Shown here piece by piece: positions 8,959 through 60,065 of a DNA stretch of 64,000 nt. Source of the DNA: an uncultured Candidatus Saccharibacteria bacterium. Its GTDB lineage: Bacteria; Patescibacteriota; Doudnabacteria; UBA920. Every line of letters starts with the position of its first letter. The first letter of the stretch is position 1. The position numbers and the translations under genes are program-made. Where the stretch lies: assembly GCA_964348935.1 (NCBI GenBank), contig CAYGEJ010000003.1:7287-71286 (forward strand), in the 5' to 3' direction. A model generated the notes under the pieces. That model did no database searches and had not been told where the DNA came from. It worked only from the letters and a program-made list of their open reading frames with translations.

Positions 8959-11124
8959 ATGACAAAACTAACTCAATTGTTAGTGGTTTTGGCATTTGCA
9001 ACAACCGTTGCCCTTGCTCAACCCACCATAAAAGTGAGCGGATTGTTGGGGGAAGTTACCCCCATTCGGATGCTTACAAACAGCCGAGGAGACACTGTCG
9101 TTTCGGCAAGAACGAATACAAGCGCTGTTCTATTGTTGAAGCTAGCCAATCAAAGCGATTTCACAGTCGCCTACAATGACCAAGGCAAAACCGACAAGAT
9201 TGCACTGGGCGGGTCTGGTAACCCGTTTACAAATGACCTAAACATCCAGAATTTTGCCGTCTACTTCACCACGCTGGACAGCCTGGGAACACAACGAAAA
9301 ACTTGGGAAATGCCTTTATCGAGCGGGCCTGCGAAAATGCTCGGCGAATTGGGTATGGATGTAAAAGTCCTACTAGTAAATTTTAACTACAGTCCAGTCG
9401 TGAAAAAACTGGAACTGGTGTCTGCGGTCAGGGAAGATTCCAGTGGTCGAAAGCTGATGTATGCAATTATCACTGGATATCTCGGATACTTTTCTCTTCA
9501 ACCCGATGGCAGCTTCCGAGAAGTAATGCTTACCGGTCACAATCAGTATATTTTTCCACCATTTGGCGTCAAAGTCGGATCGACCGACATAGACTTCACC
9601 ATAATTGGTGGTGCGGGTATATTGGAGCTAAGTAATTACAACCTCCAAACCAAGACCCAAAAACTGGTCGCCAAAACAGGTAGCAGCGTCGGGAACGAAA
9701 GCTTGCAAACAATGGCGGCAAGTATGGACAGCTGGAAAAAAACGACATTCCGCTACAAAACTGCCAACGGCGGTCGGGTGGCACAGGTCGTGGACGGTCA
9801 GACGACTGTCCTTTACGCCAGCAGTCAAGCAGTCGACGACCACGCGGTCAACATCGCGCACCTCTTCGTGCGCCAAGGGAACCGTGTTCTCATGGTCGAC
9901 GGCTTGAACTCCGCAATCCCAATCGCCTCGGTCGGCGACACGTTCGCCGGCAAGACGATTCGGGAGTTCTCTCTTCCAACACTAACCGCGCACGGGTGCT
10001 CGGTGAACTTCATGGCAAAAACCGACACTACTTCAGTGTCCGGCTCGCCGCATCTGTTTACGACTGCCCTCCCCTGTGTTTTGCAGGTACCGACAACTGA
10101 AGTAAAAGTTGGCGAAGCGGTAATTCTTTATGGTCAGAACCTTGGAACGGTCAACGACACGAAAATCGTTGACGCCGATAATGGCAATGTGTATACTCCA
10201 AACCTCATTACAAATGATACGGTAGTGTTCACGGCGCCTCGAATTGGCACCCGGTTCAAGGTAAAGACTAAAGGTCTTACCAGCAACACCTTTACGGTGA
10301 GAATTAACTCTGCTGTCGTACCGGTGATTGACAAGATCACAACGGCAACCGGCACCACCGGCGCAGTAGCTCCGAATGGGTTGTTCACTGTTTGGGGACA
10401 GAATTTGTCTCCTATCGTGTCAACCCGGTTCAACTACTACAACCCTGGCATCACGGTAGCCACTCGGCTACCCCTGCCTCGGCTTCTCGCCGGTGCAAAA
10501 GTGCTTGTAAACGGAGCAGAAATTCCGCTCCTGTTTGGTACCTGCTACGAGAGTGGCATCTGTCAATTCAACGCACAAGCACCAAGCACGCTCTTTGGCA
10601 CCACCGCTACGGTGGAGGTCCAGCGCTACACCGACGTTAACGGACGAGCACTTGAGGCCACAAGCCAAAAGTTCACCGTCGCCGTCCAACCCGTTGCCCC
10701 TGTAGTGTTCAGCTTTCCGAAAAATGAAGAAACACCTGACATTTCGGAACTGACTGTAATGCAAAATGGCGACAAAGCCTACCAGCTTGTAACCAGAAGT
10801 ACGCCCATGAAAGGTGGGCAAACCGTCGTATTGTATTCTACTGGTTTCGGACTAACCAGTCCTGAAATTCCTGTCGGCGAAGCTGCTGGAGAAACCTACG
10901 CTCCAGTTACTAGCCAAGTGAAGACTTGGCTCAAGTACAGGACCGGAGGCAATGAGAAGACTGAAGAGGCGGGCAATGTGGCAGTAGCATCACCACAGTT
11001 TCCTGGGGTAAACCAGGTAAACGTCAAATTGCCTGTTGTCCTTCCCGACCCTGGCACCAAGACGTTTCTCGTCGTAAAAGTTGGAGAGGAGTATGTTCCT
11101 GATATAGAACTCCCTTACAACTAG
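8959..11124 (+). CDS. Secreted IPT/TIG-like repeat protein, compositionally foreign
   Basis: The start was moved to ATG 8959, which follows an AAGGAGGA Shine-Dalgarno. The signal peptide is MTKLTQLLVVLAFATTVALA. Motifs VILYGQNLGT and LFTVWGQNL repeat. The C-terminal ...GNVAVASPQFPGVNQVNVKLP resembles acidobacterial TIG-protein C-termini. A 60-nt spot count gives about 52% GC. Confidence 0.6.
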   Translation: MTKLTQLLVVLAFATTVALAQPTIKVSGLLGEVTPIRMLTNSRGDTVVSARTNTSAVLLLKLANQSDFTVAYNDQGKTDKIALGGSGNPFTNDLNIQNFAVYFTTLDSLGTQRKTWEMPLSSGPAKMLGELGMDVKVLLVNFNYSPVVKKLELVSAVREDSSGRKLMYAIITGYLGYFSLQPDGSFREVMLTGHNQYIFPPFGVKVGSTDIDFTIIGGAGILELSNYNLQTKTQKLVAKTGSSVGNESLQTMAASMDSWKKTTFRYKTANGGRVAQVVDGQTTVLYASSQAVDDHAVNIAHLFVRQGNRVLMVDGLNSAIPIASVGDTFAGKTIREFSLPTLTAHGCSVNFMAKTDTTSVSGSPHLFTTALPCVLQVPTTEVKVGEAVILYGQNLGTVNDTKIVDADNGNVYTPNLITNDTVVFTAPRIGTRFKVKTKGLTSNTFTVRINSAVVPVIDKITTATGTTGAVAPNGLFTVWGQNLSPIVSTRFNYYNPGITVATRLPLPRLLAGAKVLVNGAEIPLLFGTCYESGICQFNAQAPSTLFGTTATVEVQRYTDVNGRALEATSQKFTVAVQPVAPVVFSFPKNEETPDISELTVMQNGDKAYQLVTRSTPMKGGQTVVLYSTGFGLTSPEIPVGEAAGETYAPVTSQVKTWLKYRTGGNEKTEEAGNVAVASPQFPGVNQVNVKLPVVLPDPGTKTFLVVKVGEEYVPDIELPYN

Positions 11125-11175
11125 CCTGTCATCGCTTCGACCTCCTTTTCCCCGCACATCGCGCAGGGATGAAAC

Positions 11176-11222
11176 AAACAAGCTAGACTTTCCCAACCAG
11201 GGATCGCTTAGCTTGTTTTTTA
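11176..11222 (+). terminator. Intrinsic terminator for the TIG-like gene
   Basis: AACAAGCTAG...CTTAGCTTGTT stem followed by TTTTTT. The loop contains TCCCAACCAGGGA. Confidence 0.6.
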
Positions 11223-11282
11223 TTCCCTTTTAATTACAGATATTTTGACAAAAATCCAGGACTAAATAGCTGTGCAAGATAA

Positions 11283-11330
11283 TTAAAAAACACCATACTA
11301 TTTATCCCCAACCAGGGATAGAATGGTGTT
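11283..11330 (-). terminator. Intrinsic terminator for the minus-strand gene 11345..11842
   Basis: AACACCAT...ATGGTGTT stem preceded by an A-tract. The loop contains TATCCCCAACCAGGGATA. Confidence 0.55.
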
Positions 11331-11344
11331 TAGTGATTTTTACT

Positions 11345-11842
11345 TTAGTTAGCAGGAATTGTACTGGAAAGGTTTTGCACTACGGTTACATCTATTGTAA
11401 CTTTTTTAGATAAATCATTTTGGTCAACCAAAATATACGCACGACCTGCATCTTTAGTTGCGTTTATGGTAAAAATTTTAGCTTGTTTATTTTCAACCAA
11501 AGTTGTTGCCCACCCCATATTAATCAAAAACTTCTCATACTCAATAGCAGCAGTTTTTTGAGCTAATTTACTTTCATAAATTAAAGTTCCCTGCACCGTA
11601 CCACTGGTAGCATTACTATTACTTGAAGACCTCGATATTACATTAGCACCAGGCTCTAATATCCATTCGGCGGTTATTCCCGGTGGATACATCTCTGCTA
11701 GAACAACTGTTTGTGATTCTTTTTTGTCTTCAATTATAGTTTGTGTAAACTTTTTATTCAAATATCCTCTTAAATAAAAAATTATTCCACTAACGAAAAT
11801 TAAAACTAGTATAAGATATATAAATTTTTTTTGGTTTGTCAT
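11345..11842 (-). CDS. N-terminally membrane-anchored hypothetical protein
   Basis: 165 aa, with a single TM followed by a Ser/Thr-rich soluble domain. Confidence 0.4.
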   Translation of the reverse strand: MTNQKKFIYLILVLIFVSGIIFYLRGYLNKKFTQTIIEDKKESQTVVLAEMYPPGITAEWILEPGANVISRSSSNSNATSGTVQGTLIYESKLAQKTAAIEYEKFLINMGWATTLVENKQAKIFTINATKDAGRAYILVDQNDLSKKVTIDVTVVQNLSSTIPAN

Positions 11843-11887
11843 TTGTTTATTATTAAAATTCTCTTATATAACAATTATAACACAAGG

Positions 11888-45569: not shown

Positions 45570-45651
45570 ATGTTTTAGTTAAAAGTTCTAAGTTGTAAAG
45601 TTCTAAGTTGTAAGTACTTACTACTTACCAACATACAACTTACTACTTGAT

Positions 45652-46206: not shown

Positions 46207-46293
46207 AAATGTAATTTAGGGACTATAACTATAATTTATAACGATAACAATTAATTGTTAGAGTTATGTTTATTGTTATTGTTAATTAATATT

Positions 46294-46686: not shown

Positions 46687-46710
46687 AGTATTAGTTAAAA
46701 TTTAAATTAA

Positions 46711-46905: not shown

Positions 46906-46911
46906 ATTTTT

Positions 46912-47451: not shown

Positions 47452-47474
47452 AAATCTATTCTATAAAAATTATT

Positions 47475-47798: not shown

Positions 47799-47799
47799 A

Positions 47800-48192: not shown

Positions 48193-48277
48193 ATTGTTTT
48201 AAATTTATCAGCTTGTCAGCTATTCAGTAAATCAGTATTACTGATTCGCTGAGCAGCTGACGAGCCTATTTTCTATA

Positions 48278-48526
48278 TTAAGCTTTGCTAATTACTTTAA
48301 ACTTCTTATCTTTGCTAATAGGTCTAGTAGATTCAATAATAACCCTGTCTCCTTTGTGGTATTCATTGGTCTCGTCATGTGCCTTAAACTTCTTGGAAAC
48401 AGTATAAGATTTCTTATATTTATTATGACGCTTTCTCATATCAACTTTAACCACAACGGTCTTATCCATTTTATCGGATGTAACCAAGCCGGTCATTTGT
48501 TGTTTTTTAGGGGTTGTTGTTGTCAT
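48278..48526 (-). CDS. rpsQ: 30S ribosomal protein S17
   Basis: 82 aa, conserved core. Confidence 0.9.
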   Translation of the reverse strand: MTTTTPKKQQMTGLVTSDKMDKTVVVKVDMRKRHNKYKKSYTVSKKFKAHDETNEYHKGDRVIIESTRPISKDKKFKVISKA

Positions 48527-48530
48527 ATTC

Positions 48531-48725
48531 TTACTTGCTATTTACTGTTTGATGAAGATAAGTCATGGCTCTGGCAATATCTTTCTTAACTGCTTTGAGC
48601 TCGTTAGTATTCTTTAATTGATTCAACTTTATTTTAACTGCTAAATCATGAGCCTTCCCTCGAAGTTCAGTAATCATATGCTTGATTTCGGATTCAGATT
48701 TAGATTTAAATTCTTTAAATTCCAT
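48531..48725 (-). CDS. rpmC: 50S ribosomal protein L29
   Basis: 64 aa helical protein in the expected position. Confidence 0.85.
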   Translation of the reverse strand: MEFKEFKSKSESEIKHMITELRGKAHDLAVKIKLNQLKNTNELKAVKKDIARAMTYLHQTVNSK

Positions 48726-48814
48726 ATGTATTAGTTACTAGTTTCTAGTTGCTAGTGATTAGTAAAAAGTTGCTAAGATTCTAGCCACTTATCACTAACC
48801 ACTAGTCACTTGTC

Positions 48815-49231
48815 TTAACCTCTGTGTTCCTTTACTAAAAATCTTGATTTCACTGGTAATTTGTAACTGGCGAGCCTCATAGCTTCCTGTGCCTGTTCTT
48901 TAGTTACGCCATCCATTTCAAATAAAATTCTACCTTTTTTTACAACGCTGACAAAGTGGTCAACTGCACCTTTACCTCCACCCATAGGGCTTTCGTTACC
49001 GTGTAAAGTTACAGGCTTGTCTGCAAAAATTCTAATCCAAATTTTTCCACCCCTTTGAACATAACGTGTCATTGCTCTTCTAGCTGCTTCAATTTGACGA
49101 GCAGTAACCCAAGAGCTTTCCATGGCTTTAAGAGCAAATGTACCGAAGGCAATCTCTTGCCCGGCAGTTGCTTGACCATAGGTATGACCGCGGTGATGTT
49201 TGCGGTGTTTAAGTTTTTTAGGGATGAACAT
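48815..49231 (-). CDS. rplP: 50S ribosomal protein L16
   Basis: 138 aa, typical N-terminus. Confidence 0.95.
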
Positions 49232-49253
49232 ATAGTAATATTAAAATCTACAA

Positions 49254-49934
49254 TTATTTAACTTTTTCTTCTTTAACTACTTTTCCATTTGGAATTCTTC
49301 TTTCAAAGATATCCCCTTTATAAATCCAAACTTTAATTCCGACTGTGCCATATGTGGTAAATGCTGTACTTCTGGCAAAATCTATATTAGCTCTTAAAGT
49401 ATGTAATGGAATTTTACCTAAAGACAAATGCTCAGTTCTGGCAATATCAGCTCCGTTCAAACGTCCGCCAATAGCGACTTTAGCACCTTTTGCTCCAGCA
49501 TTCATTATTTGCTCCAAGCTTTGCTTCATCAATCTTCTAAAGGCTACGCGTTTTTCCAACTGCTCAGCTATTCCGTTTGCAATAACCAGGGCCTGTAAAT
49601 TAACATCTCTTATTTCTTCTATGTTTACTTTCAATTCCTGTTTAATTCCAAGCTTGGTCTTAATCTTCTTTTTTAACTCTTCAATCCCAGCTCCACCTTT
49701 ACCAATAATTATACCAGGTTTGGTGGTCTTAATAATTACAGTGATTGTTCCGTCATTAAGTCTTTCAATATCAATTCTAACTAAACCGGCCTTCTTTAAA
49801 TGCAATTCCAAGTACTCTCGGATTCTTACATCTTCTTTTAATTGCTTAGCGTAACCATTCTTAGAAAACCACTTGGATTTCCAGGTATCAGTAATCTTTA
49901 CGCGTAATGAAGTTGGATTTATCTTATGTCCCAT
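49254..49934 (-). CDS. rpsC: 30S ribosomal protein S3
   Basis: 226 aa, KH domain. Confidence 0.95.
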   Translation of the reverse strand: MGHKINPTSLRVKITDTWKSKWFSKNGYAKQLKEDVRIREYLELHLKKAGLVRIDIERLNDGTITVIIKTTKPGIIIGKGGAGIEELKKKIKTKLGIKQELKVNIEEIRDVNLQALVIANGIAEQLEKRVAFRRLMKQSLEQIMNAGAKGAKVAIGGRLNGADIARTEHLSLGKIPLHTLRANIDFARSTAFTTYGTVGIKVWIYKGDIFERRIPNGKVVKEEKVK

Positions 49935-49990
49935 AATTTAGTTAGTTTAGTTAGTTAGAGAACAGGTTCTCTAATAATCTCTGCTGTTGT

Positions 49991-50566
49991 TTATTCTCCG
50001 GTTTTTCTATTAAATAATCTTCTCTTATTGGCTACTTTATTCATTTTCATCTGTTCATCAGTTTTGAATACCTGACTCTTCTTTTTCTCGTCGCTAGCAG
50101 CCCTCTTATTTACAGCTTCCTTGCTATCAACGCTTACTTCAGCAGGCTCTTCTTTTGCTTTATTTAAGAATCCAAGTTTGGCCTTACTAGCCTTACCAGC
50201 CTTGCGTTCTTCTAAAACTAAATTAATATGGCACATTTTTCGCTTTATTTCGAAAGCGCTCCCACGTGCTCTAGGGAAATACCTTTTCATAACTTTTCCC
50301 ATATCTGCTGTTACATCTTTAACAAAAAGGAATTGAGTGTCATATGAAAAATTATTTTTTGCATTGGCAATTGCGGATTCAAGCAACTTTATCAACATTG
50401 GAGCAGCTTTTTTATTTGCGTGCTGAAGCTGGACAATAGCATCCTGTGCATTCATACCCTTAATTAGGTTAGTTACCAAGCGCATTTTTCTTGGAGCAAT
50501 ATGAAGATGCCTTGCAGTAGCATGTACTAATTTAGGTGATTCAGTTTTTGTAGTTGCTTTATTCAT
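49991..50566 (-). CDS. rplV: 50S ribosomal protein L22 with a roughly 75-aa Lys/Glu-rich C-terminal extension
   Basis: 191 aa. L22 core in the first 115 aa, then a charged low-complexity tail. Confidence 0.9.
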   Translation of the reverse strand: MNKATTKTESPKLVHATARHLHIAPRKMRLVTNLIKGMNAQDAIVQLQHANKKAAPMLIKLLESAIANAKNNFSYDTQFLFVKDVTADMGKVMKRYFPRARGSAFEIKRKMCHINLVLEERKAGKASKAKLGFLNKAKEEPAEVSVDSKEAVNKRAASDEKKKSQVFKTDEQMKMNKVANKRRLFNRKTGE

Positions 50567-50627
50567 AATTCAGTTGCTAAGTAACTTATATACTTATTCG
50601 CTTATTTACTCATATGCTTGTTTTAAA

Positions 50628-50960
50628 CTACTTCTTTGCTGGTTCCTTTGTGGCTGTCATTTTGGCTTTTTCTGCTTCAGCTTTTGCCATTTCTTGCTCT
50701 TTAGCCATCTTACCACCATGCCTAATGAATTTGCGAGTAGGAGAGAATTCACCTAATTTGTGACCAACCATGTTGTCGGTAACAAATACAGGCGTGTGTG
50801 CCCTGCCGTTATGCACCAAGAAGGTAAAGCCTACAAATTCCGGAGCAATAGTACAGGAACGAGACCAGGTTTTAATCTGGGTTTGTCCGGCTTTGCCGTT
50901 TTGCACTTTCTTTAAGACTCTTGGGTCTACGTATGGTCCTTTTTTAAGTGATCTAGACAT
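50628..50960 (-). CDS. rpsS: 30S ribosomal protein S19
   Basis: 110 aa. Has a C-terminal Lys/Ala-rich tail. Confidence 0.95.
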
Positions 50961-50963
50961 AAA

Positions 50964-51800
50964 TTACTTAGCTCTTCTCTTTATTATCATTTGATTAGAA
51001 TACTTTTTCTTACTTCTGGTCTTCACTCCGAGTGCGTGTCTGCCCCAAGGAGTTTTTGGATATTTCATACCAATTGGGTTATGACCTTCTCCTCCACCAT
51101 GAGGGTGATCTACTGGGTTCATAGCTTTACCACGTACACTTGGTCTCCAACCCATCAATCTCTTTCTTCCGGCTTTTCCAATTCTGACATTCATCCAGTC
51201 ACTGTTAGCAAGTTGTCCAATTGTAGCTAAACAAGTATCTTTAACTTTTCTAATTTCACTGCTAGGAAGCTTAAGTAAGGAATAGCCTGCTTCTGTAGTT
51301 TGCAATGTTGCGTATGCGCCTGCACTTCTAGCCATTCTGCCACCTTGTCCAGGTGCTAACTCTATATCGTGAACCAAAGTACCTACAGGTATATTCTTTA
51401 AAGCTAAACGGTTTCCAGGTAAAATTTCTGCTGTTTCGCCGTACATTACTCTGTCGCCAACTTTAAGCCCTTGTGGGGTTAAAATATATTGCTTGTCTCC
51501 GTTAGAATATGCTAATAAAGAAATAAAAGCAGTTCTGGTTGGATCGTATTCAATAGTAGTAACTATAGCAGGAATATTCTTTTTATTCTCTCTGGAAAAA
51601 TCTACAATTCTGTATTTGCGTCTGGCTCCACCACCCTGGTGTCTAACAGTAATTTTACCGCTGTTGTTGCGACCTGCTGGCTTAGCCTTGCTGACAATTA
51701 AACCTTTAGGGGTTTTAGTCTTTTTATGCAATACCGAATAATCGGTCACACTATGAATGCGCCTTCCAGGAGATGTTGGTTTGTATAATTTTACGGCCAT
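50964..51800 (-). CDS. rplB: 50S ribosomal protein L2
   Basis: 278 aa. C-terminal GGGEGHNP... region conserved. Confidence 0.97.
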
Positions 51801-51818
51801 ATAATAAATCTAAATATT

Positions 51819-52187
51819 TTATACTACGTCGGTTAATCCTTCAATCTTGTCGCCTTTTCTAAGTGTAACGATTGCTTTTTTAAAGGCTTGTGTCTTTCCT
51901 TTTGTTTTACCAAAAGTCCTGACTTTGCCTTTGTTATTAATCATATTCACTTGAACAACCTTCACTTTATAAAATGCTTCTACAGCTTTCTTAACTTCTA
52001 CTTTATTGGAAGCTTTTAAAACTTTAAAAACATATTTATTTAATGCAGACAAATGTCCGGATTTTTCAGAAATTCGTGGTTGGATTAAAACAGTAGGAAT
52101 TCTAATTTCAGGTGCGGATGAAGAAGAAGCTTCTGCTACTGCAGCCTTCTCTTTCTTTTCTTCAGTTTTACTCTTTAGAATGGCCAT
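51819..52187 (-). CDS. rplW: 50S ribosomal protein L23 (with N-terminal extension)
   Basis: 122 aa. L23 core in the C-terminal two-thirds. Confidence 0.85.
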   Translation of the reverse strand: MAILKSKTEEKKEKAAVAEASSSSAPEIRIPTVLIQPRISEKSGHLSALNKYVFKVLKASNKVEVKKAVEAFYKVKVVQVNMINNKGKVRTFGKTKGKTQAFKKAIVTLRKGDKIEGLTDVV

Positions 52188-52212
52188 ATGTATGGAAAAT
52201 TATCTTCTGGAA

Positions 52213-52869
52213 TTATTTCTTCTCTTTAATCTTTAAATAAGTTTTTTCAATTACTCCAAGACTGTCTTTTAACACAATCATGCTATCAGCCTTTAAAACA
52301 TCAACGAGGTTCAAGCTACTAGCCAATACGGCTGTTACAAAAGGAAGGTTTCTGGTGCCTCTGACCAATTTGTCGTCTTTCTTAGGCATAACCAACAACT
52401 GCTTTTTGCCGATAGTATTTACCGAGGCTTTTAAACCTTGTAAAACCTTCAACATATCTTTAGTTTTTGGTTGATCTAAGTTAATTTGGTCAACAACGAT
52501 AAATTGATTGTCTTTAGCTTTATCGGAAAGGGTCATAAACAAAGCCTGAGTTTTAGCCTTCTTGTTTATTTTTAATTCCCAGTTGCGAGTAGATCTTGGA
52601 CCAAAGGTAACTCCACCATGTCTCCAAATAGGACTTCGTGTAGAACCAGCGCGAGCTCTTCCAGTACCTTTTTGCTTCCAAGGCTTTTTACCACCACCAC
52701 TTACTTCACCTCTGGTTTTGGTATTAGAGCTTCCCTGACGGGAGTTAGTCATATGAATTCTAGTTGCTTCAGCGAGTAAATGAGCGTTTGGCTTAACATC
52801 AAAAATCTTTGAGTTTAACTCAATATCGCCAATGGCTTCTGCTTTCTGGTTGTAAAGTTTGACTTTCAT
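52213..52869 (-). CDS. rplD: 50S ribosomal protein L4
   Basis: 218 aa, KPWKQKGTGRAR motif. Confidence 0.95.
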   Translation of the reverse strand: MKVKLYNQKAEAIGDIELNSKIFDVKPNAHLLAEATRIHMTNSRQGSSNTKTRGEVSGGGKKPWKQKGTGRARAGSTRSPIWRHGGVTFGPRSTRNWELKINKKAKTQALFMTLSDKAKDNQFIVVDQINLDQPKTKDMLKVLQGLKASVNTIGKKQLLVMPKKDDKLVRGTRNLPFVTAVLASSLNLVDVLKADSMIVLKDSLGVIEKTYLKIKEKK

Positions 52870-52890
52870 AGTGTTAGATACTCAACTAGT

Positions 52891-53556
52891 TTATTTCTTC
52901 TTCTTAACTTCTTTTTCCTTTTCAACTCTTACCAAATCCTTTACTTTTCCGGTCGAAACAATTTTTACTAAACCGTTTCTGTGTCCTGGAACAGCACCTT
53001 TTAAAGTAATTAGGTTATTCTTGGCGTCCACTTCAACAACTTGCAAATTCTTAACAGTAACTTGTTCTACACCAAAGTGACCAGCCATTCTCATACCTTT
53101 TCTGACGTGCTGAGGAAAACGTTGTCCAATAGAACCAACACTGCGTGGCTTATCGTGACCGTGACTAGCAGGAAAACCAGCGAAACCATGTCTTTTCATA
53201 GCACCAGCGAAACCTCTACCTTTACTTACACCTATTATATCTACCACTTCTCCAGGGACGAAACCAGAAATATCAACATTTTGTCCTTTGGTATATTTTT
53301 CAGCATCTTCTACTCTAAATTCAGATAAAACGGCAAAACTTCCCAAATCCTTTAAGTGACCTTGTAAAGATTTAGAAAGCTTTTTCTTTTTTCCCGTACC
53401 AATTTGTACTGCGCTATATTTGTCTTTTCCGGAAATAGTCTTAACCTGAGTCACAACCATTTTACCAGCTTTTACCACAGTAACAGGAATAACTTCACCA
53501 GTGGCGGAGTCAAAGTACTGAGTCATATTCAATTTGTGTCCAACTAAGAAGTTCAT
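52891..53556 (-). CDS. rplC: 50S ribosomal protein L3
   Basis: 221 aa, GFAGAMKRHGFAG motif. Confidence 0.95.
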   Translation of the reverse strand: MNFLVGHKLNMTQYFDSATGEVIPVTVVKAGKMVVTQVKTISGKDKYSAVQIGTGKKKKLSKSLQGHLKDLGSFAVLSEFRVEDAEKYTKGQNVDISGFVPGEVVDIIGVSKGRGFAGAMKRHGFAGFPASHGHDKPRSVGSIGQRFPQHVRKGMRMAGHFGVEQVTVKNLQVVEVDAKNNLITLKGAVPGHRNGLVKIVSTGKVKDLVRVEKEKEVKKKK

Positions 53557-53701
53557 GTTCTAGAAAATTAAAAATACGGGCCGATTTGCCCGCATGAATA
53601 AAAATAGATTAGTCTATCCTTACTTATGTGAGTAAATCGTTTTCTATTTCCTTGATCTGCCAGCTGGCAAATTTGGGGTAATAGAACTAATTTACAATTA
53701 T

Positions 53702-54025
53702 TTAACTCATCTTGATTTCTACATCTACTCCTGCCGGTAAGCTCAAATTTGTTAGAGCGTCTATTGTCTTTGGAGTTGCGGAGACTATATCTATTAATCT
53801 CTTATGGACACGCATTTCAAATTGCTCTCTACTGTCTTTGTGTACGAAAGTGGAACGAAGTACAGTGTACTTTGTTTTTTCGGTTGGCAATGGAATGGGC
53901 CCAGAAATAGTAGCGCCAGTTCGCTTGGCTGTTTCCACAATCTGTTTAGCACTTTGATCAATAAGCTTATGGTCATAAGCTCTTATCTTTATGCGGATTT
54001 TTGGTACTGCTACTTCCTTGTCCAT
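53702..54025 (-). CDS. rpsJ: 30S ribosomal protein S10
   Basis: 107 aa, [15 protein letters not shown]-terminus. Confidence 0.95.
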
Positions 54026-54105
54026 TTTGTTAAGGATCTTATTTATATTTAATTAAATTATGCGCTTTTTAAAAGGCTTTTATTCTTTTTCGAAGCACTT
54101 GCAAT

Positions 54106-54134
54106 ATTTTATACGATGTTTGTATATTTGTCAA
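54106..54134 (-). promoter_or_regulatory. Candidate sigma70-type promoter of the S10 operon (minus strand)
   Basis: The reverse complement gives TTGACA, a 17-nt spacer, then TAAAAT, about 80 nt upstream of rpsJ. Confidence 0.45.
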
Positions 54135-54171
54135 ATGGTTTATACCACAATTTCATATACAACTAACAACC

Positions 54172-54200
54172 TTGACAAAAGGCTTGAAAAGGTGTATAAT
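54172..54200 (+). promoter_or_regulatory. Near-consensus sigma70-type promoter driving the plus-strand island genes
   Basis: TTGACA (54172-54177), a 17-nt spacer, then TGtTATAAT with TATAAT at 54195-54200. Confidence 0.55.
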
Positions 54201-54316
54201 AAATATCTTAGTGTCAAAATTTAGTGAATATTTATTTGGATTTAATGGCTTTCCTATGCGGGAAAAACTATAAAATCTTAATCTGGTGCTCGCTAAACAA
54301 TCTCCTGGAGGAGAAA

Positions 54317-54487
54317 ATGAAACAAGACCACTCGAACCTTGATTGGTTCGTAAGGGATTTCATGACAGTGATCATAATCCTTTTCGTGTTGTTTGCCCCG
54401 ACCGTCTGGCTGACACTGGATACGGCCAACATTAAAGGAAATCCATCGGCCTACGTTTGGGAGCGAACCGTCGTCGCAATTAAATAG
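54317..54487 (+). CDS. 56-aa small membrane peptide (one TM)
   Basis: A GGAGGAG Shine-Dalgarno lies 6 nt upstream. Hydrophobic core VIIILFVLFAPTVWLTL. This is the shorter in-frame start within track ORF 54224..54487. Confidence 0.45.
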   Translation: MKQDHSNLDWFVRDFMTVIIILFVLFAPTVWLTLDTANIKGNPSAYVWERTVVAIK

Positions 54488-54509
54488 CGATGGCGAATAA
54501 AACAAAAAT

Positions 54510-54557
54510 GGAAGCGTGTCGGCTCCCCCCACGCGCTTCCACCAATTTTCTTTTTTT
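54510..54557 (+). terminator. Intrinsic terminator after the small peptide gene
   Basis: GGAAGCGTG...CACGCGCTTCC stem followed by a T7 run. Confidence 0.6.
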
Positions 54558-54671
54558 ACTACTTACTACACAAGCTAATATTTCTTCTAGCAAAATTGTT
54601 TACAAATCCTTGTAACCAGTTTTGTCAGAAGGATAGCAGTATCAAATTCTTCGACAACAGGGAGAATCCCC

Positions 54672-54968
54672 ATGCAAATAGTTCTGGACCAAAAAGGCTT
54701 CTACGAAGCCGCACTGCTCGGCCTCGAGGCGCAAAAAACGCGCATCGAGAAAATGATCACCGGCATTAAGCAACTCGCCGGCAAAAAACCGGTAACGACG
54801 AACATCGCCGAGGCGGCCAAAGTCGCCATCGGCGCCCGCAAAAAGCACGCCAACGGTGCCGGCGCCAAACGCAAAAAACGGAACCTGAGCCCCGAAGCTC
54901 GCCAGCGTATCGCCGATGCGCAAAAGAAGCGCTGGGCGGCGTTCCGGAAGGACGGCGCGGCGGCCTAA
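54672..54968 (+). CDS. 98-aa basic Lys/Arg/Ala-rich protein, possibly nucleic-acid-binding
   Basis: Spot counts of about 55% GC. AGGGAGA Shine-Dalgarno. Helical N-terminus, then GARKKHANGAGAKRKKRNLSPEARQRIADAQKKRWAAFRK. Confidence 0.5.
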   Translation: MQIVLDQKGFYEAALLGLEAQKTRIEKMITGIKQLAGKKPVTTNIAEAAKVAIGARKKHANGAGAKRKKRNLSPEARQRIADAQKKRWAAFRKDGAAA

Positions 54969-55013
54969 AGGAGGAATATAGCGAAATATGATGTTTCGCT
55001 CAAACAAACACAC

Positions 55014-55050
55014 GCGGTAGAAGACACTATGTCTTTTACCGCTATTTTTT
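55014..55050 (+). terminator. Intrinsic terminator after the basic-protein gene; its stem overlaps the stop of a 10-codon mini-ORF
   Basis: GCGGTAGAAGACA-CTA-TGTCTTTTACCGC stem followed by a T-run. Confidence 0.5.
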
Positions 55051-55109
55051 ATATTTGCTAAATTTCTATAAAATCTCTAGACTACTATAAAATCACTAAG
55101 GGGGAAACG

Positions 55110-55484
55110 ATGCCTAAACACACCGTCTTCTTTATTTTTTTCGCCCTAGGCCTTAATGCCCAGCAAGCGAGCGAGAGTAAGTTCCGTTGTAGCGACGGGA
55201 ACGTAACTTGGAAACCCGGCAACACGCCGAGCACAAAGGATCAAGGGTCCGCGCAAACGGAGTGCTGCAAGCTCCGCACCAACTACCAAAACTACGGCAA
55301 AGACCAAAAAGACCTGGAGGCATGCAAAAATATACCTCCGGACAAAGAACGTCTTGACCTGTTCTATGTAGAGTGTCGTATGTTCAATATGCCGTGGTGC
55401 TCCTATCTACTCCCCAAATCAATGGGAAAGGACTACTCCACCAAACCCAAACCTCCTGCAAAGGCCACAAAGAAACTCAAGTAA
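55110..55484 (+). CDS. Small secreted Cys-rich protein (8 Cys), Lys-rich C-terminal tail
   Basis: 124 aa. AAGGGGG Shine-Dalgarno. Signal peptide MPKHTVFFIFFALGLNAQQA. The GC is elevated. Confidence 0.5.
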   Translation: MPKHTVFFIFFALGLNAQQASESKFRCSDGNVTWKPGNTPSTKDQGSAQTECCKLRTNYQNYGKDQKDLEACKNIPPDKERLDLFYVECRMFNMPWCSYLLPKSMGKDYSTKPKPPAKATKKLK

Positions 55485-55491
55485 ATCCACC

Positions 55492-55530
55492 GGTCGGGAT
55501 ACCTCTCAGGTTCCCCGACCGCATTTTTTT
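55492..55530 (+). terminator. Intrinsic terminator after the Cys-rich protein gene
   Basis: GGTCGGG...CCCGACC stem followed by a T8 run. Confidence 0.6.
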
Positions 55531-55606
55531 AATTAAACTATTTTTCTCAATGCTAATTGCATTCTCTCCTCTATGTATAAATAGAAATTTTATTTACACA
55601 TCTGCC

Positions 55607-55647
55607 AAAACAAAACTCCTCCCGATAAAATCGGGAGGAGTTTTTCT
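55607..55647. terminator. Bidirectional intrinsic terminator, serving tuf on the minus strand
   Basis: AAACTCCTCCCGAT-AAAA-TCGGGAGGAGTTT with flanking A/T tracts. Confidence 0.65.
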
Positions 55648-55673
55648 ATAAACTATTAGCTAACAGCTATAAG

Positions 55674-56855
55674 CTATTTTAAAATTTTTGTTACAACACC
55701 AGCACCTACAGTGTGCCCACCTTCTCTGATGGCGAATTTACCTTTTTCTTCTAAAGCTACTGGGGTAATTAACTTAACTACCAATTTTACAGTATCTCCA
55801 GGCATAACCATTTCTTGGCCTTCTGGCAAAGTAATGTCACCGGTAACGTCGGTTGTTCTAATGTAGAATTGTGGCTTATAACCTTTAAAGAATGGAGTAT
55901 GACGTCCGCCTTCTTCTTTGGTCAAAACATAAATTTCAGTTTCAAATTCTGTATGTGGGTTAATGGAACCTGGTTTACATAATACTTGTCCGCGTTCTAC
56001 TTCATCTTTCTTAGTACCACGAAGCAAAATACCAGCATTGTCCCCTGCCATACCGCTATCTAACTGTTTATTGAACATTTCAATACCAGTTACAACAGTT
56101 TTTGCTGTTGGCTTAAGACCAACGATTTCAATTTCTTCGTTAATCTTAATTTGACCTCTTTCAATTCTACCTGTGACTACAGTTCCTCTTCCTTCAATTG
56201 AGAAAATGTCTTCGATAGGCATTAAGAAAGGTTGATCAACTTCACGAGTAGGATCAGGGATGTAAGTATCTAAAGTATCAACCAATTTTAAAATAGTTGC
56301 TTCATATTCAGCATCGCCTTCCAAAGCTTTCAAAGCAGAACCACGAATAATTGGAGTATCTTTTCCAGGGAAATCATACTTTGTCAAAAGATCTCTAATT
56401 TCTTCTTCTACTAAGTCCAACAGTTCAGCATCCTGAACCATATCACACTTGTTCATATAAACAACAATGAACTTAACACCTACCTGGTTAGCAAGCAAAA
56501 TATGCTCACGAGTTTGAGGCATTGGACCGTCAGCGGCGGATACCACCAAAATAGCACCATCCATTTGAGCAGCACCAGTTATCATGTTTTTGATATAGTC
56601 AGCGTGACCAGGACAGTCTACGTGAGCGTAGTGTCTCTTGGCGCTTTCGTATTCAACGTGAGCGGTGTTAATGGTAATACCACGGGCTTTTTCTTCAGGA
56701 GCGTTATCGATAGAATCGTATGCTCTTGCTTTTGCTCCTCCAGTTTTGGAAAGCACAGTAGTAATAGCAGCTGTCAAAGTGGTTTTACCGTGGTCAACGT
56801 GACCAATGGTTCCAACGTTGACGTGTGTCTTACTACGGTCAAATTTATCAGCCAT
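55674..56855 (-). CDS. tuf: Elongation factor Tu
   Basis: 393 aa. [14 protein letters not shown] and NKCD G-motifs. Confidence 0.97.
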
Positions 56856-57040
56856 TTGTTTTAGCCTTTCTTTCTCCTGCCTAGGCAGGAGGATTTGCTC
56901 GAGAAACCCTAGGTCTTAAGCCCTGTAGATATTTGGCACAAGACCAAGGGTTTATCTCTTTTTTCCCTTACGGAATCCAGAGCAAAAATTAATTATTTAC
57001 ATAAATATCCGCCAAAATGTTATTAAGGCGAACAAGATAT

Positions 57041-57069
57041 ATTTTAAAGATATTTAATCTAATTGTCAA
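57041..57069 (-). promoter_or_regulatory. Candidate sigma70-type promoter for tuf with a roughly 185-nt leader
   Basis: The reverse complement gives TTGACA (57064-57069), a 17-nt spacer, then TAAAAT (57041-57046). Confidence 0.4.
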
Positions 57070-57077
57070 ACCGGAGC

Positions 57078-57665
57078 TTATTTCGTAAATTTAAAAGTAT
57101 TTAAAATTTGCTCTAAAACTTCCATTGGCTTTGTTTGGTCTATTTCTGTTTTTGTACCTGGCTCATAATTAGAAATATTGGCAGTATGAATGGTTAAAGC
57201 CAACTCAAAGCAACTGTTACCGTTAAGTGTTCTATAAATTGTGGCATCGTATAAATTTCCAGCTCCTACACCAGAAGTTTGACCTACATAATAGGTAATG
57301 CCGTTAATTACCTTCGTAGATGTCATTGGCTTGCCAGTATCCTGGTTCATAAAACACAGCGCACTATCTTTAGCATAGGCAGTACTTATTGTAAAAGCTG
57401 AATCTATAAAATTAGTTTCTGGATAACTATTTTTTAAAGGTTGAATTTGGACAATTGGCTCAGAAAGGGTTGCGTAAGATGCTTGGGTAAAGCCAAAGTC
57501 TTGTGGATACTTAAATTCAAAGCTATACGGAATAAAAATATAAGTAGACCAATTATCTATTAGTTCTTGATTATTAATTGGCGTTGGATTTTCTACGACT
57601 GGCGATGTTTTATTACAACTTACTGCTAAAAACGCAACTGCTAGTAACAAATATATTTTTTTCAT
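57078..57665 (-). CDS. Putative lipoprotein
   Basis: 195 aa. Signal peptide with lipobox LAVSC. Confidence 0.5.
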   Translation of the reverse strand: MKKIYLLLAVAFLAVSCNKTSPVVENPTPINNQELIDNWSTYIFIPYSFEFKYPQDFGFTQASYATLSEPIVQIQPLKNSYPETNFIDSAFTISTAYAKDSALCFMNQDTGKPMTSTKVINGITYYVGQTSGVGAGNLYDATIYRTLNGNSCFELALTIHTANISNYEPGTKTEIDQTKPMEVLEQILNTFKFTK

Positions 57666-57721
57666 ATTTTTTTCTTTAATGATTTATCTGCGTTATCTGT
57701 CTTAATCTGCGTATCTGTGGT

Positions 57722-58120
57722 TTATATATCATCTAAATCTAATTTTGGACCTTCAAAGTCAAAAGAAGGGTCTATAACTTCTTCTCTCAAATCAACCGCT
57801 CCGGGACGCGTGATTGGATGACCGTCAAACCGAGTAAGATCTGGCGGATGACTAATAACAGTTGGTCCTTTTTCTACTTGTTTATTTGAAATTGCAATAT
57901 CTGATACTACCGGAGTAATATCTTCAGTTAATTGCGCGTTTAATATTTCCTTATTAATTTTTTCAACATCTAGCATTTGCTTCTGTAGTTTACCAATAAG
58001 TAGTTTTTGATACTCCTCTACAGGCATAATTACCAAACTTGCATTCCCCTGCTCGTCCAATATAAAAAACTTTCCTCCATCCGCCTTCGCTAAATTAATA
58101 AGGTCATTTAAATTGTTCAT
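57722..58120 (-). CDS. Hypothetical acidic protein
   Basis: 132 aa, no motif recognised. Confidence 0.35.
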   Translation of the reverse strand: MNNLNDLINLAKADGGKFFILDEQGNASLVIMPVEEYQKLLIGKLQKQMLDVEKINKEILNAQLTEDITPVVSDIAISNKQVEKGPTVISHPPDLTRFDGHPITRPGAVDLREEVIDPSFDFEGPKLDLDDI

Positions 58121-58533
58121 AAGTTTATAAATATTAAGCGTGTCATTCCAGACTCGCCTGCCCTCCTTTGGAGAGATCCGGAATCCATGAATATTCTATA
58201 TTAAGTTTCCCTCCACCAGCTGGCGGATTATCGAGAATGACAAATCAATAACCTCCCTTAATCCCTCCTCTGCAAGGAGGGAAATTACTGCAGTTGCAGT
58301 TATTCCTCTCCCTTTTAGGGGAGAAGGTTAGCCTGCCCGCCGTAGCCTTGGCGAAGGAGGGGTGAGGGTACTTAATCCTCTAACTCTCTTAATTATACTC
58401 GCCCGCTCGGGCATTTACAACTACTATAATTTTTGATATTCTACAGTGTCGTCACTAGCGCCGGCTAAACGACCCAATGCAAACCCGCTTTGAAGTTATT
58501 GGACTAGAATGACCGGTTGAGAGAGGAGGAAAT

Positions 58534-58755
58534 ATGGCACTTGAAGATTCAACAGCTAACACACCCCAAGACGAATCAGATCAAGCAAAACAAGCAAGGA
58601 GAATGCTTCTCCAAGAATTCTTGCTTGCATCAACAGAAAACCCAAGTCTCATCGCTGGGTTTTTTACCGAACCTATCCTTCAAGAAATAGTTGATCGAAT
58701 AACAAAGCGATCAAGACTTCTTACACAGCTGAAAACGGCCTTAAAACGCCGCTAG
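58534..58755 (+). CDS. 73-aa acidic/helical small protein
   Basis: A GAGGAGGA Shine-Dalgarno lies 5 nt upstream. Elevated GC. Followed by a T-rich terminator-like tract. Confidence 0.4.
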   Translation: MALEDSTANTPQDESDQAKQARRMLLQEFLLASTENPSLIAGFFTEPILQEIVDRITKRSRLLTQLKTALKRR

Positions 58756-58913
58756 CACTCTCGCCCAACGTCTACCGACCGCGGGCTTTTTTATTTGCCT
58801 ATTTACATTGCATAATTAATTTGTTATTCTGTACTGTCATCCTGGAACCGGCAGGATAGATACGTCCCAATGTAGGACGGAGTTAGTTTAGTACCGATAG
58901 TTAGGAGGAAACT

Positions 58914-59141
58914 ATGAGAAGATACATCATACCTTTGTCAGGGTTAGTGGTTTGCCTTGAATTATTGTATTGGGAGGCAACCCATAGAGACATGATTCCA
59001 CAGTTGTCTGACGGCATCAAAATAACGATGCTGATCATGACTCTCTTGGGGATGGGGGTGTTCGTATTCGGCATTGCCAAACCGCTGTGGAATGACTCCT
59101 GGAAGTACTGGGAGAAACGATTGAGAGGAGCGACGAAATGA
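58914..59141 (+). CDS. 75-aa two-TM membrane peptide
   Basis: TAGGAGGAA Shine-Dalgarno. Hydrophobic helices LVVCLELLYW and ITMLIMTLLGMGVFVFGIA. Its stop overlaps the next start (ATGA). Confidence 0.45.
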   Translation: MRRYIIPLSGLVVCLELLYWEATHRDMIPQLSDGIKITMLIMTLLGMGVFVFGIAKPLWNDSWKYWEKRLRGATK

Positions 59142-59359
59142 CCGCACGACACAAGTGCACTGTCTCCGGAAGAGTGCCTGTTATGCAAGCACGACGGAAT
59201 TCAAACATTATCCCATTTGGGGAAACCGTCGGTCTAGAAGGACCCACATGGAAAGGAGTACGCAAGACCGTCCCCATTCTACTATACGAAGGGAAAGATA
59301 AGTACGACACTGCATCTATCCCCATCGCATTCTGCCCGTTCTGCGGGAAAAAACTCTAA
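59138..59359 (+). CDS. 73-aa zinc-ribbon-like small protein (CxxS...CPFC)
   Basis: Start ATGA coupled to the upstream gene, preceded by GAGAGGAG. The Cys pair FCPFCGKK is at the C-terminus. Confidence 0.4.
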   Translation: MTARHKCTVSGRVPVMQARRNSNIIPFGETVGLEGPTWKGVRKTVPILLYEGKDKYDTASIPIAFCPFCGKKL

Positions 59360-59377
59360 CCAAAACCTCGGCGCAGT

Positions 59378-59436
59378 GCCCAGAGCCAGCGGTTCAATTA
59401 ATACCTGAACTTCTGGCGCTGGGCTTTTTTATTTTT
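59378..59436 (+). terminator. Intrinsic terminator after the coupled pair
   Basis: GCCCAGAGCCAG...CTGGCGCTGGGC stem followed by a T6AT5 run. Confidence 0.6.
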
Positions 59437-59463
59437 AATTCTGGTTGATCACGATTTTGATAT

Positions 59464-59502
59464 AAAAAAATTTGAGCCGTCCACCTAAAAGGCAGACGGC
59501 TC
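59464..59502 (-). terminator. Intrinsic terminator for the minus-strand gene 59514..60065
   Basis: GAGCCGTC...GACGGCTC stem preceded by an A7 run. Confidence 0.5.
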
Positions 59503-59513
59503 ATGCGCCAGGA

Positions 59514-60065
59514 TTAATCGAGAGTGATTTTTGACAGGGGGTAGGGATGTACGTATCGGTAACCTTCCTTAACATCTAAGAATTCGAACCTGACCCAGCT
59601 GCCTTTGAACCAACCACTACTTGTGGATAGGAATGTTCTGCTGGAATCGCCAATTCCCACCGTTCCGCAAGAAATCTCACAACGGGAATTCAGGGGTGGC
59701 CAAGGCAAACCATTTTCTGTGAACTCGACGCTGTTTTGGTTAGGTTCTTGTTGTTCCCATTCTAAGATGGTGCATACAACCGGAAACCGAGCTTCCAGGA
59801 TCCTTACCACAACCCTATCAAGATTACCCGGCACATCAAAAAGAAATTCGACGCGTTGTCCCACCTTCAAGTTGTGTGGGTAAATACCTCTATCCCTAAC
59901 CACCTTGGGCGTCTTATCCGAAGACGTAAGCACCAACCACAACCCTTGCAACCCAATAATGCTTTTGCATGGCTTAAATGGGAAAATTATAATAAAAAAC
60001 CCTGCAGCTAAAATAGAAAGGACAGCGACTACAATCATCACGATAGCCTGACTTAAAATCTTCAT
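59514..60065 (-). CDS. N-terminally membrane-anchored extracytoplasmic protein
   Basis: The start was set at the internal Met (MKIL...), which follows a GGAGGAGAAGAG Shine-Dalgarno; the track ORF begins 8 codons earlier at a non-ATG start. One TM. The body has moderately elevated GC. Confidence 0.45.
   Translation of the reverse strand: MKILSQAIVMIVVAVLSILAAGFFIIIFPFKPCKSIIGLQGLWLVLTSSDKTPKVVRDRGIYPHNLKVGQRVEFLFDVPGNLDRVVVRILEARFPVVCTILEWEQQEPNQNSVEFTENGLPWPPLNSRCEISCGTVGIGDSSRTFLSTSSGWFKGSWVRFEFLDVKEGYRYVHPYPLSKITLD

Follow-up and report, generated by a model that had tools for sequence, protein, structure and literature searches.

In a 64,000-nucleotide stretch of DNA from an uncultured Candidatus Saccharibacteria bacterium (GTDB lineage Bacteria; Patescibacteriota; Doudnabacteria; UBA920; assembly GCA_964348935.1, contig CAYGEJ010000003.1, positions 7,287 to 71,286 of the forward strand; the whole stretch is called the window below), three small GC-rich segments, islands A, B and C, carry eight genes that differ from their native neighbors in the way their starts are marked and, with one exception, in composition. 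We think, with a probability of roughly 60%, that these segments are independent, laterally acquired cassettes of mixed origin, B and C lying in str-operon hot spots found across the clade, and that the signature common to their genes is due to the host. A sequence-only reading of the same DNA had already pointed to such a signature (plus-strand genes opposite to their neighbors, strong Shine-Dalgarno sequences, secreted or membrane products) and had traced it to a common source, either a higher-GC donor such as a host bacterium or a mobile-element family, and to a common function at the cell envelope or host interface.

Composition and start signals of native and island genes

The window has ~35% GC, and nearly all of its genes lie on the minus strand. 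From the high-coordinate end the order is rpsL-rpsG-fusA, a Phd-like gene (phd), a lipoprotein gene, tuf, and rpsJ with the S10/spc ribosomal genes. We called 77 genes, 69 native and eight in the islands, and computed for each one the GC content at third codon positions (GC3) and the Shine-Dalgarno (SD) energy, the latter being the best duplex between the 22 nt upstream of the start and the 16S tail CACCUCCUUA (the organism's own 16S lies outside the window). The native genes have a GC3 of 0.288 ± 0.040 (n = 69; range 0.21–0.41), as compared to 0.47–0.73 in seven of the eight island genes (Mann-Whitney p = 1.4e-5 for all eight vs native; single values are listed below). The exception is the 73-aa gene at 58534, with a native-like 0.31. 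Discrete compositional classes, as had been proposed, are therefore borne out gene by gene.

All eight island genes are preceded by a strong SD, with energies of −8.2 to −12.0 kcal/mol, as had been claimed for the higher-GC genes, whereas only four of the 69 native genes reach −8 (Fisher p = 2e-8). Since the within-island background at this threshold is 7.6%, eight strong SDs out of eight are far above chance. Of random 22-mers drawn from the coding strand of native genes, 4.8% reach −8 and 15.8% reach −6, vs 9% of the native upstream regions at −6; the native rate is thus no higher than in random sequence, and the native genes are devoid of any SD signal. The earlier remark that many native genes lack a recognizable SD was, if anything, too cautious. 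The starts of these genes are instead embedded in a context poor in G (≤0.10 at positions −8 to −1) and rich in A (61–68% at −4/−5), with T/U in 70% at −1; ATG accounts for 97% of them, and the SD-less context is clearest at 44000–63500. Related loci (L006–L015) are likewise SD-poor, with 6–19% of genes at ≤ −6.

The island features are the following:

Island A, upstream block, 8882–8948, plus strand: AT-rich, promoter-like TTGTCAAC...TGTAATAAT, with SD AAGGAGG at 8942–8948, by sequence reading
Island A, gene, 8959–11124, plus strand: 721-aa secreted protein with signal peptide MTKLTQLLVVLAFATTVALA/QP, beta-rich N-terminal half and TIGR03437 C-terminal domain; GC3 0.54
Island A, intrinsic-terminator-like hairpin plus T-run, 11173–11221, plus strand: inverted repeat I3, arms 11173–11194 / 11200–11221
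Island B, promoter, 54172–54200, plus strand: perfect TTGACA-17-TATAAT, 12/12 consensus matches
Island B, gene 1, 54317–54487, plus strand: 56-aa peptide with one transmembrane (TM) segment; SD GGAGGAG; GC3 0.61
Island B, gene 2, 54672–54968, plus strand: 98-aa basic, Ala/Lys-rich protein without signal peptide or TM, C-terminal KKRNLSPEARQRIADAQKKRWAA; SD GGGAG; GC3 0.73
Island B, gene 3, 55110–55484, plus strand: 124-aa protein with signal-peptide-like N-terminus and six Cys; SD AAGGGGG; GC3 0.60
Island C, promoter 1, 58414–58442, plus strand: TTTACA-17-TATTCT with TG, from the consensus scan
Island C, gene 1, 58534–58755, plus strand: 73-aa soluble protein; SD GAGAGGAGG (−12.0 kcal/mol); GC3 0.31
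Island C, promoter 2, 58802–58830, plus strand: TTTACA-17-TATTCT, same architecture as promoter 1
Island C, gene 2, 58914–59141, plus strand: 75-aa peptide with two TM; SD TAGGAGG; GC3 0.61
Island C, gene 3, 59138–59359, plus strand: 73-aa Cys-motif protein ending in CPFCGKKL, start overlapping the previous stop (ATGA), without signal peptide or TM; GC3 0.50
Island C, gene 4, 59514–60065, minus strand: 183-aa N-terminally anchored protein (N183); SD GGAGGAG; own promoter 60124–60096 and terminator 59503–59473; GC3 0.47

All five genes named in the sequence-only reading (the 721-aa, 56-aa, 124-aa, 75-aa and 183-aa ones) are present, and three island genes had been overlooked, namely those of the 98-aa protein and of the two 73-aa proteins. 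The signature was also drawn somewhat too neatly. The plus-strand orientation opposite to the neighbors is found in seven of the eight genes, the minus-strand 183-aa gene being oriented like the native ones, and the bias lacks significance when counted by transcription unit (6/7) or by insertion site (3; p = 0.125). As for secretion, five of the eight proteins have a predicted signal peptide or TM, vs 17 of the 69 native ones, a marginal excess (Fisher p = 0.039 with a generous count, 0.20 with a strict hydropathy count). The hydropathy scan flags four of the eight; the 124-aa protein has, besides, its short signal-peptide-like N-terminus, and the three overlooked proteins have neither. A common envelope function is thus weakly indicated at most, because these three proteins look soluble and none of the small proteins could be given a function.

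The nearest mechanistic parallel to the native genes is offered by SD-blind initiation in Bacteroidia, where, according to the parts of the literature considered here, native genes are SD-less with A-rich, G-poor upstream regions and SD genes are rare (the exceptional one in Flavobacterium is rpsU), bS21 occludes the anti-SD and the sequestration involves bS21, bS18 and bS6 (PMC9976891, PMC13000453, PMC13000457). The native genes of the window resemble this type in having no SD enrichment and an A-rich, G-poor start context. They differ from it in belonging to a lineage of the Candidate Phyla Radiation (CPR) and in that the SD-bearing genes would be acquired cassettes; the likeness is one of upstream sequences alone.

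Insertion sites in the window and in related loci

Each island lies in a native terminator-to-promoter gap. Island B (~54172–55650) occupies the tuf-rpsJ gap, between the tuf terminator (55612–55644) and the rpsJ promoter, and island C (~58414–60161) the fusA-phd gap, between the fusA terminator (60130–60161) and the promoter of phd, the lipoprotein gene and tuf. Island A is a single gene, divergent from a giant surface-protein gene, in the gap between the two. Independent Logan and ENA assemblies contain the island-native junctions at 100% identity, and three independent assemblies are identical across all of them.

Within the islands, each open reading frame (ORF) is preceded by a properly spaced SD, and a terminator-like hairpin comes after most of them. 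Except for the translationally coupled gene at 59138, all have a promoter-like site, which for the 721-aa, 98-aa and 124-aa genes is a putative one that the consensus scan did not flag. The upstream block of island A has 79% identity, over 87 nt, with the corresponding stretch of the related locus L086; both retain the SD core AAGGAGGACT. In island B, the promoter stands back-to-back with the native rpsJ promoter (minus strand, 54134–54106), which is conserved in L121, and a TTGACA-17-TATAAT without mismatches is found at the corresponding place in L006. Genes 2 and 3 are followed by a hairpin and T-run (~55488–55530 for gene 3), and 3' of gene 1 the scan picks up only a minus-strand hairpin at 54527–54510. 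Promoter 1 of island C overlaps the back-to-back native phd-tuf promoter (minus strand, 58420–58392), whose sequence GTTGTAAAKGC...TATAAT is conserved in seven relatives. The 73-aa gene at 58534 is followed by a terminator-like GC stem with a T-run ending at 58796, whose tail GGGCTTTTTTATTT recurs in the next unit, and the Cys-motif 73-aa gene by a terminator at ~59381–59434. The two plus-strand units of island C are therefore alike in promoter design and terminator tail. No other upstream motif is common to the cassettes.

Nothing in the surroundings points to a vehicle of insertion. There is no integrase- or transposase-like ORF in or beside the islands, the borders have neither direct nor inverted repeats and no att site, and the flanking genes show no recombination tract, the GC3 of their ends being native. 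The cassette ends have no repeated imperfect palindromes in common that could be attC-like sites, and the islands are unlike an integron in having no integrase and in carrying their own promoter-like sites. Structured RNA genes behind the GC-rich patches were considered and rejected: Rfam gave no match, either at gathering threshold or at E ≤ 1, and neither tRNA nor tmRNA was detected.

When metagenomes were scanned with the Phd-like protein, which is specific to the lineage, 43 related loci were obtained in which the genes follow the same order; over the portions present, their fusA and tuf reach 97% and 98% identity, respectively, with those of the window. The EF-Tu of the window is 88% identical to that of L006, a metagenome-assembled genome (MAG) labelled 'Candidatus Saccharibacteria', and 77–78% to those of other Patescibacteria MAGs, which places the organism in the Patescibacteria (CPR). 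The gaps between these conserved genes vary widely in length: the fusA-phd gap has 9–1259 bp in the 43 loci vs 2120 bp in the window, the tuf-rpsJ gap 242–3192 bp in related loci, and the rpsG-fusA gap up to ~990 bp in relatives vs 49 bp in the window. In L121, which is the nearest low-GC relative (core GC3 0.35), the fusA-phd and tuf-rpsJ gaps have 169 and 242 bp; they are nearly empty, so islands B and C are absent there. The gaps of other relatives contain 14 antisense ORFs with an SD of ≤ −7, distributed over 11 loci, many of them with lipoprotein-type or TM N-termini. These ORFs are unrelated to the window cassettes, except for a 109-aa protein of L006 that matches the 98-aa protein.

The GC3 of the cassettes, 0.57 ± 0.09, is uncorrelated with that of the host core genes (0.30–0.65; r = 0.17, p = 0.41). 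Further members of the clade have cores with GC3 up to 0.76, and the window has the lowest core GC3 sampled, which is why its cassettes separate so cleanly from the native genes. L006, with a core GC3 of 0.56, has an SD before each of the two gap genes and none before the ribosomal genes, although the GC3 of the gap genes is unremarkable. Thus, a strong SD may serve as a cheap, composition-independent flag of recent acquisition in SD-poor lineages. Moreover, the str/S10 region, usually regarded as a fixed block of phylogenetic markers, would hold insertion hot spots, which bears on marker-based binning and on synteny-based annotation of CPR genomes.

Taken as lateral islets, the segments show patchy presence, with near-empty gaps in L121 and unrelated cargo in other relatives, and distinct composition in seven of the eight genes; mobility signatures are lacking, and discordant divergence is seen for the 721-aa gene only. 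Such islets are already known in CPR bacteria. The abstract and matching passages of Gios et al. (2025, mSystems, PMC12455944) state that islands and transferred genes make up to 13% of Patescibacteria genomes and that 83% of transfer events occur within the phylum, most transfers being inferred as such and some as coming from other bacteria and via phages. The likeness lies in atypical composition, patchy distribution and streamlined CPR hosts; compared with the islands described in those passages, the segments of the window are very small (1.4–2.3 kb, one to four genes), have no mobility genes and sit in the str/S10 region. The contrast between SD-led and SD-free genes does not appear in the abstract or in the keyword-matched passages of that paper, among which no search was aimed at Shine-Dalgarno. 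In our opinion, this split between SD-led acquired and SD-free native genes and the str/S10 hot spots are useful details, not a system of a new kind; nothing here is unexpected in kind.

A side observation concerns fusA-phd gaps without such cargo. In L098, L118, L091, L093 and L096, these gaps measure 0.7–1.3 kb and have no convincing SD-led ORF, and their GC is often above the locus mean. Two of them, L098:7204-8272 and L118:9332-10001, share blocks at 83–95% DNA identity. These gaps may be non-coding elements or decayed cassettes.

Origin of the cargo and rival explanations

The 721-aa protein of island A is the best documented part of the cargo. It had been described as a TIG protein, but Pfam gives no PF01833 (IPT/TIG) match at E ≤ 0.1; the match is instead to TIGR03437 (Soli_cterm), over residues 462–714 (E = 9.3e-29, 100.8 bits vs a cut-off of 29.05). 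TIGR03437 is a paralogous family defined in Solibacter usitatus. The C-terminal 250 residues fit its model, including the ...FPGVNQVNVKLP motif. The other relatives sampled are 22–30% identical and are encoded beside outer-membrane beta-barrel genes on contigs with 63–64% GC, which marks them as non-CPR. A long N-terminal region is likewise present in two of these distant relatives, P0012 and P0013, where Pfam gives faint or weak matches to beta-propellers, and a faint PF01833 match is on record for P0012. The AlphaFold2 (AF2) model of the 721-aa protein (pLDDT 38.6) is too poor for a judgement on the fold. Unlike the family at large, the protein resides in a CPR host, and its N-terminal half is hypervariable between two CPR orthologs.

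There is a single close homolog, P0011 (60% identity); it occupies the syntenic site of L086, a locus of another AT-rich relative from a different sample. There, the ortholog has a GC3 of 0.53 and lies in the same divergent arrangement beside an ortholog of the giant surface protein with a GC3 of 0.12 (49–54% identical), so the two surface-protein genes appear to travel as a divergent pair. Between the window and L086, the amino-acid identity of the 721-aa protein is 92% in the C-terminal half and 33% in the N-terminal half. The difference at four-fold degenerate sites is 0.32 in the C-terminal half (0.74 at saturation) and 0.54 in the N-terminal half (0.75), whereas that of the flanking giant-protein pair is 0.61 (0.64 at saturation), i.e., saturated; the synonymous divergence of the 721-aa gene from its ortholog is ~0.42. 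Because the C-terminal half is far less diverged than the saturated flanking gene, its common ancestor should be much more recent than that of the host genomes. This comparison of sequences indicates that the gene, or at least its C-terminal half, was exchanged laterally between members of the clade at the syntenic locus. The third-position bases of the gene (A.23, C.32, G.22, T.23) match the core genes of L006 and L097, two higher-GC members. The locus resembles that of a surface protein, with one half conserved as an anchor, the other hypervariable, and exchange between lineages, and we think that it is a reasonable candidate for studies of host attachment.

Some minor features surround this gene. 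A perfect 12-nt inverted repeat, GAAGCGATGACA / TGTCATCGCTTC, lies at 8953–8964, around the start codon, and at 11127–11138, 3 nt after the stop. In the L086 ortholog both arms are altered yet largely complementary (ATGAG(A)C / GCTCAT). The repeat could allow pairing between the 5' and 3' ends of the mRNA; chance alone would give ~0.25 such repeats in this region. The 13-mer CCCAACCAGGGAT occurs in the loops of two convergent terminator hairpins, at 11192–11204 for the 721-aa gene and at 11307–11319 for a native 165-aa gene. The giant protein (1485 aa, 4295–8752, minus strand) has a signal peptide, is rich in Cys, Thr, Ser, Gly and Pro and contains internal tandem repeats; in another assembly of the same population its gene is one 285-bp repeat shorter (1390 aa). 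The GC-rich stretch at 4.5–8.5 kb within this gene was discarded as a further island: the gene is native, and its GC excess comes from the amino-acid composition of the product (GC2 0.57, GC3 0.27).

The 98-aa protein of island B is a member of a family characterized by the motif K(K/R)R..S.E.R.RI..A.K.RW. Besides its syntenic homolog in L006 (the 109-aa protein; 30% identity, E = 3e-4), the family is found on a non-CPR contig of a flagellate bacterium encoding FliM and in 21 IMG/VR viral contigs with a GC of 0.52–0.66, in one of which a portal protein (E = 8e-94) is encoded 850 bp away. A weak match to phrog_1709 (E = 0.0049) was also obtained. A resemblance to the NUMOD3-like DNA-binding motif was dropped, as it has no Pfam support.

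For the remaining proteins the searches gave little. An exhaustive HMMER search for N183 over 1.84 billion representative proteins returned only the query itself, and its AF2 model (pLDDT 44) is confident only for the N-terminal helix, residues 3–27. The exact 56-aa sequence is not in the protein collection searched, and the 124-aa protein has no family, phage or viral-contig match. Phage- and plasmid-directed tblastn with the 721-aa, N183, 124-aa and 98-aa proteins gave no match; neither did the viral-contig scans with the 721-aa, N183, 124-aa and 73-aa (58534) proteins. The Cys-motif 73-aa protein matched viral contigs only over its 13-residue motif, its phage-family and viral-contig matches together being limited to 13–21 C-terminal residues. 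PHROG matches to the island proteins are absent or weak, PADLOC finds no defense system among them, and the PDB sequence search found no match; the genes around them are fusA, the phd-like gene, tuf, rpsJ and those of the giant surface protein and of small membrane proteins. The remaining small proteins have no family, phage, plasmid or defense-system match, with the reservation that negatives from concatenated queries are unreliable: two word-indexed protein searches with concatenated island proteins failed to return the queries themselves, and only the matches to the 98-aa family were used from them.

We propose the following scheme. A typical cassette would consist of an ORF equipped with a strong SD, a promoter-like element of its own and a hairpin resembling a terminator, and would be set into a terminator-to-promoter gap; the fusA-phd and tuf-rpsJ gaps would act as hot spots across the clade, with unrelated cargo of similar look in relatives. 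The cargo would be mixed: a TIGR03437 secreted protein exchanged within the clade, a basic protein of a family seen in high-GC phages, and genes with no detectable relatives. The proximate donors would mostly be higher-GC relatives or their phages. The host is the most AT-rich member of the clade sampled, and its native genes would start without SD on G-depleted, A/U-rich leaders, so any incoming SD-bearing gene of ordinary composition may look like part of one foreign class. There may also be a retention filter, by which GC-rich genes are kept only if they have a strong SD and their own promoter, because a GC-rich leader would be unable to use the A/U-rich, SD-independent start context of the host. 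Divergent placement by native promoters would, in turn, avoid interference with the ribosomal operons.

Phage morons provide a suitable comparison, being autonomous promoter-gene-terminator units of deviant GC between conserved genes, with products that are often membrane-bound or secreted. The cassettes of the window appear to have a like architecture (promoter-like site, ORF, terminator-like hairpin, deviant GC, non-disruptive insertion), their sites being consensus-based. They are unlike morons in that no prophage surrounds them and that, of the eight proteins, only the 98-aa one has family members in phages.

Several facts weigh against this scheme of independent cassettes. Six of the eight proteins have no homolog found in any relative, and a within-clade donor is indicated for the 721-aa gene only; the closest sequence relatives of the 98-aa family lie outside CPR. 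No island border has a mobility gene, tRNA, direct repeat or recombination tract, and the promoters and terminators are predicted from consensus sequences only. When all ORFs of the relatives' loci were surveyed crudely and automatically, strand, SD and GC3 were not significantly linked. Because noisy ORF and start calling, with spurious ORFs and internal starts, confounds that survey, the pattern across the clade is drawn from gaps inspected by hand. As for the putative retention filter, the 16S with the host anti-SD lies outside the window, and some Parcubacteria have no anti-SD motif (PMC9297842).

The explanation first put forward, a single higher-GC source (the host bacterium of the episymbiont or one mobile-element family) and a single envelope or host-interface function, would account for the SD uniformity, for the mostly uniform GC3 and for the five membrane or secreted proteins. 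The setting of TIGR03437 genes elsewhere, beside outer-membrane beta-barrel genes on GC-rich contigs, would also suit it, as would the presence of the 98-aa family in high-GC phages and in a flagellate bacterium and the common promoter architecture and terminator tail of the two island C units. Yet we consider it unlikely. Codon usage differs from island to island, with correlations of relative synonymous codon usage of 0.36, 0.12 and −0.22 between them, GC3 spans 0.31–0.73, three of the eight proteins look soluble, and there are neither common border elements nor a cross-island upstream motif. The close or syntenic homologs are only in related CPR genomes, the non-CPR TIGR03437 relatives being distant, and at the same sites relatives carry other, unrelated cargo. 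The donor need not be a host bacterium, because the cores of the clade itself cover GC3 0.30–0.76 and close homologs of the 721-aa protein and syntenic ones of the 98-aa protein occur there. This means that a placement of the genes within CPR, which had been named as a result that would refute the first explanation, is in part what was found. Nevertheless, the foreignness itself is sustained by the atypical composition, by the absence of islands B and C in L121, by the low synonymous divergence of the 721-aa gene, by the occurrence of the 98-aa family in high-GC phage contigs and by the setting of the other sampled TIGR03437 members on contigs with 63–64% GC. A bolder idea, which we regard as distinctly unlikely, is that the clade uses two 'dialects' of translation initiation, an SD-free one for the core and an SD/anti-SD one retained mainly to express or gate circulating small envelope or accessory genes. 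If it were true, a strong SD would be the regulatory tag of an accessory regulon, beyond a relic of the donor.

That the island genes are old residents, i.e., vertically inherited SD-dependent accessory genes whose higher GC is actively maintained by mRNA selection or biased gene conversion, would agree with the synteny of the 721-aa and 98-aa genes in relatives, with the conserved SD and upstream block of the former, with the SD-led gap genes of L006 that have the GC3 of their host and with a cassette GC3 of ~0.57 whatever the host composition. We find this quite improbable in view of the absence of islands B and C from L121 and the different cargo of other relatives, of the synonymous divergence of the C-terminal half of the 721-aa gene, ~4-fold or more below that of the flanking gene and unexpected under vertical descent, and of N183, for which no homolog was found anywhere searched. 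Moreover, we know of no mechanism that would keep GC3 at 0.5–0.7 in a handful of short genes when the genome around them has 0.29. As for an artefact (chimeric joins or contaminating reads) or structured RNA genes taken for coding sequence, GC-rich patches in AT-rich genomes are often RNA genes and several of the tiny ORFs have no detectable relatives, but this explanation is largely refuted and hardly credible any longer: the three assemblies agree at all junctions, Rfam and tRNA matches are missing, every ORF has a properly spaced SD and all but the coupled one have promoter-like sites, and the 721-aa ortholog pair is under purifying selection, given its 92% amino-acid identity alongside a four-fold-site difference of 0.32.

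Leader RNAs, spacers and neighboring genes

Beyond the S10/spc genes, among which no L30 gene is found between rpsE and rplO, the window continues with genes of glycolysis and the pentose-phosphate pathway. The 5' leader shared by phd, the lipoprotein gene and tuf (58121–58392, minus strand) is ~270 nt long, vs ~75–170 nt in relatives, and has 46% GC. It contains polypurine/polypyrimidine hairpins with several GGAGG and CCUCC motifs and has a folding z-score of −4.16 (0/200 shuffles as good); it has no DNA similarity to the leaders of relatives.

A conserved structured RNA of ~85–125 nt is predicted in the 5' untranslated region of tuf (56897–56983, minus strand), between a conserved TTGACA-17-TTAAAAT promoter and the gene, and 21 related loci have its counterpart 5' of tuf (e.g., L098:8848-8956, L093:11541-11644 and L006:185-273). 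Its elements are, in order, a GCUC/GAGC closing stem, the conserved unpaired UGGAUUCC, a hairpin that varies, a run of A and a long hairpin in two parts, the loop of which usually reads GAUCGAU. Over 21 pairs, 96.1% of the cells are paired vs 84.0% in shuffles (0/500 reach this value), and the covariation score is 0.405, vs 0.178 when shuffled and ≤0.11 with slid partners, with compensatory changes in eight pairs. Rfam gives no match at gathering threshold or E ≤ 1. We think of the RNA as a candidate new cis-regulatory leader.

Finally, spacers between genes of the ribosomal operon consist of tandem repeats of 7–13 nt (minus strand, 44602–44640, 45570–45610, 48726–48760, 49935–49960 and 63459–63490), as they also do in L006. 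Examples are TTCGTAA four times before rplO, AACTTAGAACTTT twice before rplR, and ACTAGnAACTAG before rpmC and rpsL. These repeats are rich in stop codons in all frames.

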